From contig OZ024742.1 of assembly GCA_964016885.1 (NCBI GenBank), positions 256,990,001 through 257,054,000 of the forward strand: a stretch of DNA of 64,000 bases. The letters are read 5' to 3'. Both the position numbers and the translations under genes were made by a program. Numbering within the stretch: position 1 is the first letter of the stretch; every line of letters begins with the position of its first letter. Shown here in pieces: positions 7,875 through 44,216 of the stretch. The notes beneath the pieces were generated by a model. The model had not been told where the DNA came from, searched no databases, and worked only from the letters and a program-made list of their open reading frames with translations. Origin of the DNA: Eledone cirrhosa (Eukaryota).

Positions 7875-10310
7875 CTATTGGGGTGATAACCCGTTTAGTT
7901 TTGGTTTAAATTTGTTGAGGAATAGATTTTCTTTGTTTATTCTTTGTTGCTGTGTGAACGAATCTGAGCACTTGTAGAAGGGGAAGATTTTAAAGTTGGG
8001 TAGTGTCATTCCTGCGCAGTTCGCAATATGGCTGCTCAAGGGGATTTTTCTTGTGTTAGCGTCCCGGATTTGTTGGCGGTGGATGGTCATTCTTTTGCGT
8101 AATGAGGTGCCCGTCTGTCCTATGTAGTTGTGTTTGCACCCACCGCAAGTTATTGCGTAAATCAAGTTCTCCGAGTTGCAGGTGAAATTGTTTTTTACTG
8201 TAAATGTTTGGCCATCTTTGAATGTAAATGTTTGTCCTTCAGTGAGGTAGAGGCACATTCCACAGTTTGTTCTACCACATTTGGTAACTGTAGGGTTGAG
8301 GATTGGTTTGGGTATATTTGGTCCAGTGAGAATGCGTTTAAGTGATTTGGGTTGTCTTTTACTTTTAAGGATCTTGTGTGTTTCAAGAATAGACTTCATT
8401 TTTACATCTTTAAGTAGGATGGGGAGGTTTTTGTGTAGGTGATCAAACATTTCGGTATTTCTGGGGTTGAATGTGGATACATATGGAAGGGTGTTGAGTG
8501 TAGTTTTCTGTTTTGGATTGTTAAGTTGATGGGGATTTAGGTATTTTGCCCTGTCTATTCCATTGTTGATTATTTCAAGTGGAAAGGCTCTTAAGATAAG
8601 TGTGTCTTTTAGTTCCTTTAGTCTTTGCTCCCGTTTAGGTGGATCTGATACTATGGTACATATACGTTTGGCCAAATTGTAAGGAATGTTAAGTTTTGTA
8701 TGTTTTGGGTGACTTGATGTGAAAAAGAGGTATTGCTTGGAATCTGTGGGTTTATAGAATATATCTGTATCTAATTTCCCGTCTATTACAGATATGAGAA
8801 TATCCAAGAAGGCTAATTCCTTAGGATTGGATTCCATTGTGAATTGTATGTTATTATCTATGTTGTTTATCATGTTTTTAAACGTAGTAAGTGAGTTCAT
8901 GTCTTCTTGCCATAGGATAAAGCAGTCGTCTAGATATCTTTTCCAATTGGCTTTGAGGTGTGTGTGGAAAGAGTCTCCAAATAAGAGAAGGGACTGACTG
9001 TTTATTTGTTGTTCATGGAATCCCATGACTAGGTCGGCATATGTGGGTGCTACTTTCGTGCCCATTGCCGTACCTGATACTTGTCTGTATGTTGAACCAT
9101 TGAATGTGAAGTAGTTATTTTGTAGGATAAAGCGGAGTCCGTCAGTGATAAAATCTGTGTTGATGCGTGTCGGTATTTCTGATGGGTGTGTGTTAAGCCA
9201 GTATTGGACTGCTGTTATTCCATAGTTGTGAGGTATGTTTGTGTAGAGGTTTATTACGTCAAAGGAGACAATAATTGTATTTGCACTTACTGTTTTAGGG
9301 AGGTGTTTCAGCATGTCAAGGTCATCTCGTATGTAGCTCTGTATATGTTGTAGAAAGGGTTTCAGTAGGATGTCCAGAAAGTTGCTAAGTCTGTGGGTTT
9401 CACATGTAGGGCCTGCTATAATTGGCCTGAGTTTTAGGTCTTCTGGTGGTGTTAGTTCAATGTAATTGTTGGTTGAGGTATCACATGCATCGTTTATGGG
9501 TTTACATTTGTGAAGTTTCGGTAAGCCGTAAAAAGAGCTTGTATTGCATTTGAAGTGGCTTATATAGTTAAACTCTTTTGTGGTTAAGCTGTTGCGGTAT
9601 TTATTCAGTAAGGTCAAAAGGTTCCCCATTGTTTTGGTGTGTTTGTAGTTTTCTGTTTTTTCATAGTATGTGTTGTTTTCTAAAATGTTAAGTGCGAGGG
9701 TCCTATAGTAGTCCGTATTCATAATGACAACAGTACTGCCTTTATCGGCTTCTTTGATAGTTATCTCAGGGTTGTTTCTAAGTGTAAATAATTCTTCCCA
9801 TTCGTGTGTAGATAGGTTTGATTTCGTGTGTTTATTTGTAATTTTTTCATAGGGAAAGTTGGTGATGTGTTCGCAGTACGTGTCCAGTGCTTTATTTCTT
9901 CCCTTTTGTGGGCAGAAATTGCTTTTATTTCTAACCAGTGATTCGTCTTCAGTGTTGGTGTCGTTGTGGAAGAATTCCGTTAGTCGCAGCTTTCGGCAGT
10001 ATTCCATGATGTCATCCTTCATTTCGGGGAAGTTTGGTTTACGTGGTGTAGGTGTAAATTTCAGGCCCTTACTTAAAATGTTGATTTGTGTGTTGGTTAG
10101 AGGTGTCTTTGAGAGGTTGATTATTTTTGGTTTCTCCTGAGGGGGGGGCCATCGAGTATCCTGGTATTTCAGGCTTTTCCCTAAAAAAGGAATGTAGTTT
10201 TGTGTGTGATTATATTTTGTTGGTCTGTTGCGTGTGGGTCTGTAGCTTGTTGTTTCATGAGGGTGAATGTGATGGTGGGGGTGGTATGTGTTGTGGTTGT
10301 TGATGAGCAA
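7875..10310 (-). CDS. PLE reverse transcriptase + CxxxxCxxC linker + GIY-YIG endonuclease (uninterrupted 811 codons, no obvious own ATG before the conserved region)
   Basis: IINLS..LSKGLKFTPTP, EADKGSTVV, YGLPKLHK, LRPII, FDVINLYTNIP, GTAMGTKVAP, RYLDDCF, FLDI, CGRTNCGMC, LIYAITCGGCKHNYIGQTG..RKRMTIHR. Confidence 0.95.
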   Translation of the reverse strand: MLINNHNTYHPHHHIHPHETTSYRPTRNRPTKYNHTQNYIPFLGKSLKYQDTRWPPPQEKPKIINLSKTPLTNTQINILSKGLKFTPTPRKPNFPEMKDDIMEYCRKLRLTEFFHNDTNTEDESLVRNKSNFCPQKGRNKALDTYCEHITNFPYEKITNKHTKSNLSTHEWEELFTLRNNPEITIKEADKGSTVVIMNTDYYRTLALNILENNTYYEKTENYKHTKTMGNLLTLLNKYRNSLTTKEFNYISHFKCNTSSFYGLPKLHKCKPINDACDTSTNNYIELTPPEDLKLRPIIAGPTCETHRLSNFLDILLKPFLQHIQSYIRDDLDMLKHLPKTVSANTIIVSFDVINLYTNIPHNYGITAVQYWLNTHPSEIPTRINTDFITDGLRFILQNNYFTFNGSTYRQVSGTAMGTKVAPTYADLVMGFHEQQINSQSLLLFGDSFHTHLKANWKRYLDDCFILWQEDMNSLTTFKNMINNIDNNIQFTMESNPKELAFLDILISVIDGKLDTDIFYKPTDSKQYLFFTSSHPKHTKLNIPYNLAKRICTIVSDPPKREQRLKELKDTLILRAFPLEIINNGIDRAKYLNPHQLNNPKQKTTLNTLPYVSTFNPRNTEMFDHLHKNLPILLKDVKMKSILETHKILKSKRQPKSLKRILTGPNIPKPILNPTVTKCGRTNCGMCLYLTEGQTFTFKDGQTFTVKNNFTCNSENLIYAITCGGCKHNYIGQTGTSLRKRMTIHRQQIRDANTRKIPLSSHIANCAGMTLPNFKIFPFYKCSDSFTQQQRINKENLFLNKFKPKLNGLSPQ

Positions 10311-11389
10311 GGGTTCTGTTGTTGGTTCATGTGGTCTGGGTGCGTTATTTCTGTGGTACAGAGTGTTGAGGCTGGGGGGTTGTCTTTTGTTGGATTGAGG
10401 GTGATGTCTGGTGTGGTTGTGGGTAAGTTCTGTTGTGATTTCAAGTGGTCTGGGTGGATTTCTTCTGAGGAATGTGGTGTGTGTGTGTTGTGAGTTGGAT
10501 CTATGTTATTTCGTCGTTGGTTTATGTAGGGGGCATTTCTACGGAAACCTGTGTTGTGGTGGTTGGGTGTGTTTCTTTTGGTGTAGTTGGCCGTATTTGG
10601 TTTGTGTTGGTGGGGGATGTGCCTGTGGTTAGTGTGTGTTGGGTTTGGTGGTGTAAATGTGTCTGTTGTAGTTCTTGTTATGTTCAAATGCTTTATAAAG
10701 GGGTTACCTGTTTGGTGCGTCCTTTTAAAGTCTTTTTCATATTTGAGGAACCAGTTTTCGGATTTTTCCCACCGTTTAAGGGAAATAGTTTCTGCATTCT
10801 CGCAGTCCTGTTTCCACGATTTGATTAAATTTTGTAGGGTTGTTCCCTCGGCCTTTTTAGTGCATTCTTCCTCCATATTTTTATCAGTATCCTTATACTC
10901 TTGCTCGTTTGAGGTGGCCCTTAATTTTAGGAGTTCTATTTCCATGTTTATCCTGTTGAGTGACATTTGTTCACGGAGTTTTCTTTCTGGTTCAGGTTCG
11001 TTTGTAATATGCTTTATTTGGAATTTACGTGGTAAAACTATCGGTGTTGAGTTAATCCATTTTTGGTAAATTCCAGCTTTGTTGAGGTTTTTTATCATAT
11101 TCCAGAAAGTGAATTTTCTGGTTTTTAGATGTTTTTTCCAGAGGTGTCCCATTTGGTTTTTGATATGGAGCAATGTCGTTTGTTCTGTGTTGGTATTCAT
11201 AAGTTTTTCGATGGAGTTGCATACGTTTTGAACGTTTAAATAAATTTGGTTGTCAGTCGGTGTGGTGGTTTGGGGTATATCCTGTTTTTTTGTCAGAATG
11301 GTGAGTTTTCCATTTATCTCTTTTAGGATTTTCAGGATTTCCTCATTGATATTGGAGTTTGAAGTTGTGTTGTCTTGTTCCAGTGCCAT
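10181..11389 (-). CDS. PLE upstream ORF1 (402 aa; predicted coiled-coil N-half, H/N/T/P-rich C-half)
   Basis: Open 402 codons from an ATG just downstream of the pLTR. Heptad-like segments INEEILKILKEINGKLTIL and RINMEIELLKLR. Overlaps the RT ORF by 130 nt. Confidence 0.8.
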   Translation of the reverse strand: MALEQDNTTSNSNINEEILKILKEINGKLTILTKKQDIPQTTTPTDNQIYLNVQNVCNSIEKLMNTNTEQTTLLHIKNQMGHLWKKHLKTRKFTFWNMIKNLNKAGIYQKWINSTPIVLPRKFQIKHITNEPEPERKLREQMSLNRINMEIELLKLRATSNEQEYKDTDKNMEEECTKKAEGTTLQNLIKSWKQDCENAETISLKRWEKSENWFLKYEKDFKRTHQTGNPFIKHLNITRTTTDTFTPPNPTHTNHRHIPHQHKPNTANYTKRNTPNHHNTGFRRNAPYINQRRNNIDPTHNTHTPHSSEEIHPDHLKSQQNLPTTTPDITLNPTKDNPPASTLCTTEITHPDHMNQQQNPCSSTTTTHTTPTITFTLMKQQATDPHATDQQNIITHKTTFLF

Positions 11390-11849
11390 TTTCCGGATTT
11401 GCGTAGGTTAGTATATATGAAAAGTGTAATTTTCTACACAAAACGAAGGTTATAGAGAAAATTGAGGTTGGTAATGGCACATGGAATATATAAGAGACAG
11501 AATACTTTTTTGTGAAAAAACATAATTTTATAAGGTAAGGAAATAATAAAGGGTATAAAAATCCCTTTCTATCACGCTCCACTCTCCTACCCATCACAGG
11601 AAGCTATGTGTATGTATATTGCTTCCACCCCCTCACTGACCAGCAGCTGGCCAGTTGGTGATTGCTAAATCTGACGTTTATAAAATAACCCACACCCCAA
11701 ATAACTTCTCATTCACTACCAGAAAGGGACACAGCAGTCAACCTGTTGTTGCTACCTAGATGAAAACTGCTATGAAATCCCACAATGAATTTTATACTTG
11801 AATTTTCAAGTCTCAAATTTTAACTCTTCGTATTTTTCTTAATATTAAT

Positions 11850-24238: not shown

Positions 24239-25640
24239 GGAAAAAAGATGAAATGGAAAATGCAACTGGAGTCTTTTTTTAAAAGAATATATATATCTAT
24301 TTGGTTCCTTTACCGGTTTCGCAGTTCTTCTGCTTTTCAAAAGTAGAGTTGAGATGGAGGGTCTATGGTTTTTCTCACATCTGGATGGTCTTTGAATGTT
24401 ACTTGTTTTATATGGAAAACAGTGGCTCGAAATGCCAGGTTTTAGAGAAGTAATTTGATTGGTTGTTGAATAAGTAAAATAAATTTCGCGCCATTTCGCG
24501 TTACAAAGTTCTTCAAACAAAGGAGGGGCTCAGGTTGTTTTTTTCATATATGAATGAAGTTTGGTTGGTTGATGCAGTGACGTGAATAAGCACATCAGCT
24601 TTCGCGCCAGTTTGTGTTTGAATTTCTTTTTACTTAAAAACCAAAAAAAGTGACTCACGAGGGCTTTTTTTTTATAAATGTAATTTGATTGGTTATAAAT
24701 GAAATTATGACTGTCACGTGAACAAGTACATTAAATTCACGCCCGTATTTTTGGAATTTTTTCATAGCCGTTTAGAGAATCTTGTGCTAATAATTGTCAA
24801 GAAAAAAGGGATGGACAGAGTTGTTCTGAGTATGACTGATGCGCTGAAATGTAATTTGATTTGTTATAAATGAAATTATGACTGTCACGTGAACAAGTTC
24901 ATTAAATTTCGCGCCCTTATTTTGGAATTTATTTTATAGCCTTTTAGAGAATTTTGTGCAAAAACAAAAGGTAATGGTCAAGAAAAATGGGATGGGGAGA
25001 ATAGTTCTGGTTCAGTGAATATGGCTGGTGCGCTGGGGTGTCAGAATTCAGATTTTCTATTGAAATAAAGAAAGTAGAGATATGTATGTTTATTTGTGTG
25101 CTTCTGTGTGTGTGTGTGTGTGTAGTAATATCATTCTATTAGTAGAAATGGGGGAGGGAGTTGTGTGTGTGTATGGGCGTTATGTGTGTGGGAGTATGGT
25201 TAGTATGTTAAGATGGAGAGAAAATATATATTTGTGTGTGTTTGTAGGAGAGTGATTCTATTAGTAGAAATTGGGGAGGAAATTGTGTGTGTGTGGGTGT
25301 TATGTGTGTGTGTATGAGTGTGTGGGAATATGGTTAGCATGTTAAGATGGAGAGAATATATATATTTGTGTGTGTGTGTGTGTGTATGAAAATGATTCCG
25401 TTAGTAGAAATGGGGGAGCGAGTGATGTGGGTGTGTATGGGTGGGTGTAGCATGTTAAGGTGTTAGAGTATTAGCGTATGTTAAGGTTTATTTAGTTCTG
25501 GTTTTTATTTTCTAAAGTAGGTGTTATGTGTGTGAGTATATATGTGTCTGTTTGGATGGTAAGCATGTTATGGTGTTGATATAATGTATATTAAACTATA
25601 TATATAATGTATATTAAACATAGTTTTGATTATTCTGTAA
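24235..25640 (-). mobile_element. Non-coding pLTR-type element with tandem internal modules; related fragment at 21760-22160
   Basis: HHR near the left TA array; 4 repeated ATTGG..CACGTG..TTTCGCGCC modules; sub-repeats at 25130-25420. Confidence 0.65.
24308..24343 (-). ncRNA. Minimal hammerhead ribozyme, U3-A8 variant, intact core
   Basis: CTT-TTGAAAA-GCAG aagaa CTGC-GAAA-CCGG-TA-AAG. Confidence 0.82.
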
Positions 25641-43528: not shown

Positions 43529-43560
<32 letters not shown>

Positions 43561-43704
43561 GAATGTATATATAGTGTATTTTGCAATACACTGTATGCTT
43601 AATTAAAAGCATTTCGAAGACATTATACTATTGTTTTAGCGTAGTGATAGTCTCACTTACTTTAATTTTCAGCAAACAGGGGAGATCAAACAGGAGGAGT
43701 AGTT

Positions 43705-43749
43705 AGCCTTGATAAGCATCAACAAATGCGAAACAGGACTCTGTCGGCT
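43705..43749 (+). ncRNA. Hammerhead ribozyme (U3-A8), fully paired
   Basis: AGCC-TTGATAA-GCAT caacaa ATGC-GAAA-CAG gact CTG-TC-GGCT. Confidence 0.88.
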
Positions 43750-44024
43750 TTATCTCCCCTGTTTGCTGAGAATTAATGTAAGTGAGACTATCACTACTCT
43801 AAAACAATAGCATAAGGTCTTCGAAATGCTTTTAATTAAGCATACAGTCTATTGCAAAATACACTATATATACATTCATATATATATAGCTATTTCAGAG
43901 CACCAATTCTAATTTTCAATTCATGCTTGACCGGCAAACGCTCTGTATAATCAGTTACTGATTATTTACTAGAATTCTATAAGAATCAAACATCCATGGT
44001 TTTCAGCAAACAGGAGGAGTAGTT

Positions 44025-44069
44025 AGCCTTGATAAGCATCAACAAATGCGAAACAGGGCTCTGTCGGCT
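44025..44069 (+). ncRNA. Hammerhead ribozyme (U3-A8), second tandem copy
   Basis: AGCC-TTGATAA-GCAT caacaa ATGC-GAAA-CAG ggct CTG-TC-GGCT. Confidence 0.88.
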
Positions 44070-44181
44070 TTATCTCCCCTGTTTGCGGAAAATTAAAGTA
44101 AGTGAGACTATCACTACTCTAAAACAATAGCATAACGTCTTCGAAATGCTTTTAATTAAGCATACAGTGTATTGCAAAATG

Positions 44182-44216
<35 letters not shown>

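Follow-up and report, generated by a model that had tools for sequence, protein, structure and literature searches.

We analyzed a 64,000-nucleotide stretch of the Eledone cirrhosa genome (the window) and found that an element at positions 43550-44190 is probably a high-copy, non-coding animal non-LTR retrozyme, whose RNA circle would be copied into (TA)n by a putative Penelope-like reverse transcriptase-endonuclease. The observations behind this reading are the anatomy and abundance of the element, the covariation of its hammerhead stems, a palindromic helix III, two fixed 3′ ends, head-to-head arms, and insertion into (TA)n. On its own the locus is ordinary and its class of element is already known: it fits the sequence-level definition of animal non-LTR retrozymes given in PMC7229834. 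The assignment to retrozymes made in a first-pass annotation of the window is borne out by the tandem unit, the covarying stems and the many copies. What is new lies at the family level: the copies, above all those of a sister family, bear footprints that were likely left when each was copied from one RNA circle.

Anatomy and predicted folding of the locus

As the first-pass annotation had noted, (TA)n tracts bracket the element on both sides (43529-43573 and 44185-44213); GC content near it is about 31%. A direct repeat pair (43687-43893 and 44007-44213) shows 94% identity, and a left inverted arm is 91-94% complementary to each direct copy. A description as two repeats and a spacer, on the model of LTRs, does not hold: the "spacer" is the remainder of a 320-nt unit, and the locus consists of 1.6 head-to-tail units of one 320-nt monomer plus a 5′-truncated inverted arm. 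With unit position 1 set at 43889, the direct arm (43687-44190) runs from unit 119 to 320 and then from 1 to about 300, and the inverted arm covers unit about 185-320, with its 3′ end facing the left (TA)n. The inverted terminal repeat previously placed at the 5′ end is indeed an inversion, but it is a 5′-truncated copy of the 3′ part of the unit and not a terminal repeat. One variant is common to all three arms of the locus and to 15 of 124 family units. The features are as follows.

43529..43557, no strand: left (TA)n tract, the target microsatellite, with no sharp edge against the TA run that belongs to the element
43550..43686, minus strand: inverted 5′-truncated arm, the 3′ 135 nt of the unit; hammerhead core absent
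43687..43888, plus strand: direct arm, first unit, 5′-truncated (unit 119-320)
43689..43763, plus strand: hammerhead 1 and its distal stem; the minimal ribozyme is 43705-43749, with cleavage predicted after 43745
43746..44065, plus strand: predicted cut-to-cut 320-nt monomer and would-be circle, from fold prediction
43826..43865, plus strand: two small hairpins 5′ of the 3′ end, recognised by eye in an alignment
43889..43913, plus strand: Penelope-type "tail", internal only at this locus; the 3′ end of other copies, then (TA)n
43929..43944, plus strand: 16-nt motif just 3′ of the tail, common to the sister family; one mismatch in this copy
44007..44190, plus strand: direct arm, second unit, to the first internal TA run, which is the 3′ end of the insertion
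44009..44083, plus strand: hammerhead 2 and its distal stem; the minimal ribozyme is 44025-44069, with cleavage predicted after 44065
44185..44213, no strand: right (TA)n tract, a TA run

The element is non-coding, as had been claimed: no ORF of at least 150 aa overlaps it, and an ORF with reverse transcriptase (RT) and GIY-YIG endonuclease is absent from the element, whose unit is only 320 nt. The tail is missing from both ends of the insertion at 43550-44190. A TSD is unreadable because the insertion lies within (TA)n. With type I hammerheads and permuted tandem units, the element is not a plant-type LTR retrozyme, which has a type III hammerhead, true LTRs, a PBS, a PPT and a 4-bp TSD.

Direct reading and a script agree on TTGATAA cores at 43709 and 44029 and on GUC cleavage sites that follow 43745 and 44065, a spacing of 320 nt. 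In hammerhead 1 the U3-A8 core spans 43709-43715 and helix III spans 43733-43744. Both ribozymes are type I, helix I being the open helix, and in both of them stems I, II and III have 4 bp each and are fully paired; a longer distal stem is present beyond each. These results confirm the two tandem U3-A8 hammerheads of the first-pass annotation, with their 320-nt spacing, predicted cuts and distal stems. Our hammerhead descriptor found two matches in the 64-kb window, both at this locus, against two in 30 shuffled windows (0.07 per window). An Rfam search of the whole window returned nothing at gathering score; the two Hammerhead_HH9 scores, 20.7 and 20.0 bits, lie below that model's gathering score of 52, and none of 18 genome matches to Hammerhead_1 (clan CL00010) is a member of the 320-nt family. 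Matches to Rfam miRNA models were rejected as hairpin or TA artefacts.

In fold predictions that treat secondary structure only, without tertiary contacts or kinetics, the double-hammerhead fold takes a share of 0.13 in a tandem transcript, against 2e-5 for two single folds; taken singly, outside the tandem, hammerhead 1 has a share of 0.42 and hammerhead 2 one of 0.005. The 320-nt monomer is predicted to fold stably (z = -5.6; 0 of 100 shuffles as stable) in a form that holds the ribozyme inactive. When the inverted arm is included in the transcript, it pairs about 135 nt in the first part of the monomer, and the predicted double-hammerhead share falls from 0.13 to 2e-9. Any transcript with both hammerheads starts left of 43705, where only 18 nt 3′ of the junction avoid the inverted arm. 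Because the inverted arm would almost certainly be co-transcribed and would pair with the monomer, release of a circle is doubtful here: this copy is likely a poor circle source, its monomer predicted to be trapped in a hairpin. The earlier proposal that the element releases a 320-nt monomer is reasonable for the family but, given this predicted trap, doubtful for the copy on which it was made.

Copies, covariation and insertion ends in the 320-nt family

A likeness search of the genome (3.0 Gb) listed 1,731 candidates; the 40 that were scored contained 135 matches. A tight hammerhead pattern has 520 exact matches genome-wide (control 0) and the terminal 20-mer has 4,280 (control 1), counts that include copies in tandem or inverted but not those that have mutated; the genome-wide copy check proposed in the first-pass annotation was positive. 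From retrieved loci, chosen by likeness or pattern and not at random, we assembled 75 insertions of at least 140 bp, three of which are a local triplication of one. Smaller clusters and TA-only matches were dropped, and simple-repeat noise was thereby removed. All but two of these insertions (73 of 75) have fewer than four units and are dispersed; the others are long old arrays of about 41 units (G000:C2:208895065-208908289) and about 17 units (G000:C1:82390457-82395955), with about 30 differences per unit pair and about 10% unit divergence. In locus L047 a Hydra-like ORF is flanked by two copies at a distance of 4.5 kb; the pair resembled the pLTRs of an autonomous element, but the copies are separate (TA)n insertions.

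Across 47 copies (45 distinct), 95% of stem cells are paired. Changes on both sides of a pair occupy 25 stem cells against 9.1 in shuffles, a value that none of 500 shuffles reaches but that is inflated because the copies are related. These changes come from just three pairs, a number reached by 229 of 500 shuffles, and the distal stem has no covarying pair among the 47 copies. Core conservation is also inflated, since the loci were partly chosen by hammerhead patterns. Counting one unit per insertion (n = 51), the first pair of stem I is U-A in 28 and C-G in 20, and the last pair of stem II is U-A in 40 and C-G in 7. Helix III together with its loop is perfectly palindromic over 12 nt in three versions, carried by 8, 7 and 7 of the 51 units, and forms a wobble palindrome in 6 of 51. 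The two outer "loop" bases of helix III are complementary in 46 of 51 and cannot pair in a monomer hairpin, which matches the prediction of pairing between two copies; the palindrome kept in helix III likewise favours cleavage as a dimer. The hammerhead stems appear, then, to covary across the family, as the first-pass annotation had expected, through three pairs and with the distal stem apart. Ribozyme cleavage looks to be under selection, judging from the both-side changes in stem I and helix III.

The ends of the insertions fall into few classes. In orientation, 47 of the 75 are head-to-head and 28 are single-orientation. Among 122 3′ ends, 58 are body ends at the TA run of the unit, 47 are tails that end ~25 nt beyond the body end (at unit 22-35), and 17 are of other kinds. 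The flank is TA-rich at 39/47 tail ends, 38/58 body ends and 1/17 other ends, against a background of 146/3,199 window bins; free 5′ ends are TA-rich in 11/28. The head-to-head insertions comprise 25 with a body and a tail end, 2 with two tails, 6 with two body ends, including the locus described above, and 14 with an irregular end. In two runs of one sample, independent contigs (36 and 32) leave the element at 43913 and continue as (AT)n; these depths are not copy numbers. We read these features, namely inverted 5′-truncated copies, partial tandems, a one-sided tail and (TA)n insertion, as marks of a non-autonomous Penelope-like element.

It is quite improbable that the family is instead a DNA-level satellite or foldback, grown by unequal crossing-over or conversion after insertion of a Penelope pLTR fragment and carrying the hammerhead as a passenger. 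Such a process would suit the two old long arrays (17 and 41 unit equivalents), and local amplification after insertion is the preference of a 2026 preprint (10.64898/2026.07.22.740005). The other 73 of 75 insertions speak against it, being small and dispersed and having 3′ ends at fixed sites but 5′ ends that scatter, as do covariation at the RNA level and the private alleles that span the inverted arms of young arrays in the sister family.

The sister family and the template of insertion

The sister family has a unit of 310-311 nt and was first found in L081 (1-1265); it also occurs in L210-L221. It is identical to the 320-nt unit at 219 of 331 aligned positions, and its hammerhead has a canonical core and a minimal palindromic helix III. 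The two families have in common the start of the tail, a 16-mer and the 3′ hairpins (43826..43865), both of which the sister keeps via changes on both sides in an alignment read by eye. The 16-mer common to both has 18,504 exact genome matches (control 0), and we consider the motif at 43929..43944 a candidate protein-binding or promoter site. A role as an snRNA-type promoter was rejected in a comparison with U2 only, where the best match upstream of two genes has 7/16 mismatches. The U2 snRNA genes form a tandem array with a 2.2-kb period (G000:C3:307349000-307454000). A pattern for a third family gave 48 matches, of which the 30 retrieved all belong to the two known families; another such pattern yielded only a subfamily.

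Sister arrays lie head-to-head in (TA)n and hold up to about 18 near-identical units (for example, G000:C1:1239700-1244450). We retrieved 20 regions, 13 of them with two or more units. Within an insertion 442/512 unit pairs are identical (mean 0.14 differences), and between insertions 3/78 are (mean 6.0). Of these 13 insertions, 12 are head-to-head, and every one of the 12 has one body end and one tail end. Both arms of each young insertion carry the same allele; the 12 young insertions hold 10 distinct alleles, with three insertions sharing one, and single odd units are retained in 5/12 young arrays. The older 320-nt family carries a weaker single-template signal: units differ at 10.3 positions within an insertion (25 pairs) against 24.6 between insertions (2,390 pairs), and only 14/38 units have their nearest neighbour in the same insertion.

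An assembly artefact is a very improbable source of this uniformity and would affect the single-template argument alone. The sister-array evidence does rest on the assembly, the available runs being short contigs. Against an artefact, the odd units in 5 of the 12 young arrays and alleles that vary by locus indicate that the sister units appear resolved.

In the 320-nt family, 102/122 arms cross the cut site and only 3/96 5′ breakpoints fall near it, so the template was not a linear cut monomer; these data point to a circle or an uncleaved multimer. Linear copying mutates one unit only, and private alleles fill both arms, so a monomer pass is needed; one such pass per insertion best explains the sister uniformity seen in the assembly. 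Repeated jumps on one linear RNA would look identical to a circle in genome data.

We consider it rather unlikely that the same element, integrating in the same Penelope-type manner, uses a linear uncleaved multimer or template jumps and needs no circle, with the hammerhead merely trimming transcripts or cutting rarely. Arms that cross the cut site fit uncleaved RNA equally well, and for Poseidon PAc, the one Penelope-like element assayed in vitro, cleavage was dispensable and uncleaved RNA was the main template (PMC11167929; Frangieh et al. 2024); unprocessed RNA dominated, with no reads at the cut site (PMC11167929). The allele shared by three of the 12 young sister insertions, as if from one parent, and the 3.9-kb tandems that a full-length Hydra-like element forms in the same genome also agree with a linear template. 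This template fits poorly with 10 alleles in 12 sister insertions, each present throughout both arms, and with the both-side changes that keep helix III and stem I, which make cleavage look selected.

In the circle-based reading that we prefer, a source array with at least two direct units would be transcribed, and the palindrome in helix III would bring adjacent hammerheads together as a dimer, whose cleavage yields the 320-nt monomer. A host ligase would close the monomer, as in other animals (PMC7229834). A Penelope-like protein would then nick both (TA)n strands, and reverse transcription would begin at two internal sites ~25 nt apart, one per strand; a variable-length run round the circle would give two arms, joined head-to-head at random 5′ breakpoints. 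More tentatively, and with slightly less than even confidence, we suggest a joint reading that combines one circle per insertion, arms with private alleles, palindrome-gated cleavage and a helper that reads a cis-signal. The palindrome would allow cleavage in tandem transcripts and not in the circle, and the cis-signal would consist of the two hairpins, the TA run, the tail and the 16-nt motif, the helper's own end sequence being different.

Candidate helpers and related systems

Several young Penelope-like families whose endonuclease is C-terminal occur in the genome; their clade names are provisional and come from motifs compared with PMC8557442. One near-intact Neptune-like element lies in the window (7875-11407, minus strand; 7875-10505 is the RT/endonuclease part), with an upstream frame of 408 aa and an 876-aa frame for RT and GIY-YIG. 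Its family is very young (150/150 scored matches at ≥99%; 23,621 candidates), its 3′ UTR leads into TG/TA repeats, and the descriptor found no hammerhead in the window's element. A 134-bp tandem repeat (2.6 copies) at window positions 25105-25449 looks, by eye, like a TG-rich repeat beside a Neptune-like element in L048. A young Hydra-like family (L358, L359) has an 821-aa frame, full-length 3.9-kb tandems and (TA)n ends, and by eye a hammerhead-like motif with a long helix II near its 3′ end. A second Hydra-like family (L047:3220-7170; L160-L189) has 55,169 candidates and a long AT-rich 3′ UTR, and no hammerhead was found among the matches listed (descriptor, helix II <30 nt).

Two further families carry hammerheads. 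Family C (L290-L307, L308, L312) is unrelated and scores above the Rfam Hammerhead_1 cut-off; its 3′ end, flanked by (TA)n, falls at either of two sites some 100 nt from each other, and at two loci a Hydra-like endonuclease frame is found about 2 kb upstream of it. Family D (L302:1920-2070; L316-L345; 2,018 candidates, 98% alike) forms the 3′ end of a longer element (≥1.1 kb), and a short inverted copy often accompanies it. Its core is like that of the sister family, but the comparison was negative: the local score of 73 is below the shuffle maximum of 81 (300 shuffles).

Among the five Penelope-like or hammerhead-bearing families compared, in a genome with tens of thousands of further candidates, none shows end homology to the retrozyme families. 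The retrozyme ends had no match in the Neptune-like family of the window (30 loci plus 2 tandem loci), the Hydra-like family with the 821-aa frame (2 tandem loci) or family C (18 and 8 loci). For a Hydra-like family (30 loci), the matches listed included only two, from loci flanking known copies, and the comparison was rechecked on 28. The first-pass proposal of mobilisation by a TA-targeting PLE finds agreement in the insertion marks in (TA)n and no helper among the families compared.

Cleavage and circles have been demonstrated for animal non-LTR retrozymes (PMC7229834; Cervera and de la Pena 2020), whereas the present element is known from sequence and fold prediction. Like the elements in PMC7229834, it has a non-coding tandem unit within 150-450 bp that carries a single type I hammerhead, together with a GC content below 50%, thousands of copies and a structured monomer; Penelope-like helpers were proposed there. 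Unlike them, it has a U3-A8 core and a 4-bp helix III within a 12-nt palindrome, together with head-to-head arms, a tail and a (TA)n target, on which a term search of the main text of PMC7229834 brought up nothing. A Penelope-like origin of animal retrozymes, and with it the pLTR bridge, was already proposed in PMC7229834, and Li, Clavereau and Pollet argue in their 2026 preprint (10.64898/2026.07.22.740005) that retrozymes are non-autonomous Penelope-like derivatives; the first-pass claim that this structure bridges PLE pLTRs and retrozymes was to that extent overstated. Retrozymes in the preprint resemble ours in mean unit length (about 315 bp in amphibians and insects), in having mostly few units per locus, and in co-occurring with Penelope-like elements. 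The link drawn there is pLTR homology (24/57 Xenopus families match known elements) and co-distribution; here it is the insertion footprint, with no pLTR homologue among the families compared. A term search of the preprint's main text brought up no treatment of inverted arms or tails, and 8/9 of its Xenopus retrozyme dimers failed to cleave (10.64898/2026.07.22.740005).

Partial tandems, an inverted 5′-truncated copy, a (TA)n bias and a hammerhead near the end are also found in Neptune and Hydra PLEs (PMC8557442; Craig et al. 2021), as is an optional tail at one end, of 30-40 bp in PLEs (PMC8557442) and about 25 nt here. The present element differs from autonomous members of these clades in having no ORF. 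MRC1 and its kin (PMC8557442) are likewise non-autonomous forms with multicopy head-to-tail insertions, but their 3′ end resembles that of the autonomous partner and they are mostly without hammerheads (PMC8557442), in contrast to our element. With PLE hammerheads (PMC4209133; Cervera and de la Pena 2014) the element has in common the U3-A8 core variant, already described in Schistosoma PLEs (PMC4209133), a palindromic helix III and proposed cleavage as a dimer. It differs from them in three ways: helix II is of canonical size (4 bp), position 9 is not followed by an additional base, and helix III, with 4 bp, could also fold within a monomer. The minimal form is found in the sister family. Unlike the present element, Poseidon PAc is autonomous. 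Its tail is set by two internal RT start sites, and both target strands are cut and extended (PMC11167929); the two 3′ end sites that define the tail here would correspond to such start sites, and the target is AT-rich in both. Poseidon PAc also needed RNA 3′ of the start sites (PMC11167929), and the best-conserved motif of our element is located just beyond its tail, on the 3′ side.

That a circle might serve as template for copies longer than a unit was proposed in PMC4209133 and PMC7229834, and the circle-to-genome step of animal retrozymes has so far been a proposal (PMC7229834). In a search mostly of titles and abstract openings, largely of open-access papers, we found no report of within-insertion uniformity as evidence for a circle. 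The value of the present locus is its family context, in which Penelope-type integration marks and the uniformity of the sister family suggest that each insertion was copied from a single template molecule. The genome also contains several Penelope-like families that are young and intact, which makes the pairing of retrozyme and helper, and rolling-circle reverse transcription, testable. If the joint reading is true, both families would be a direct genomic record of rolling-circle reverse transcription, and the sister family of 310 nt, being very young, would offer an active system in which the proposed retrozyme life cycle can be tested.
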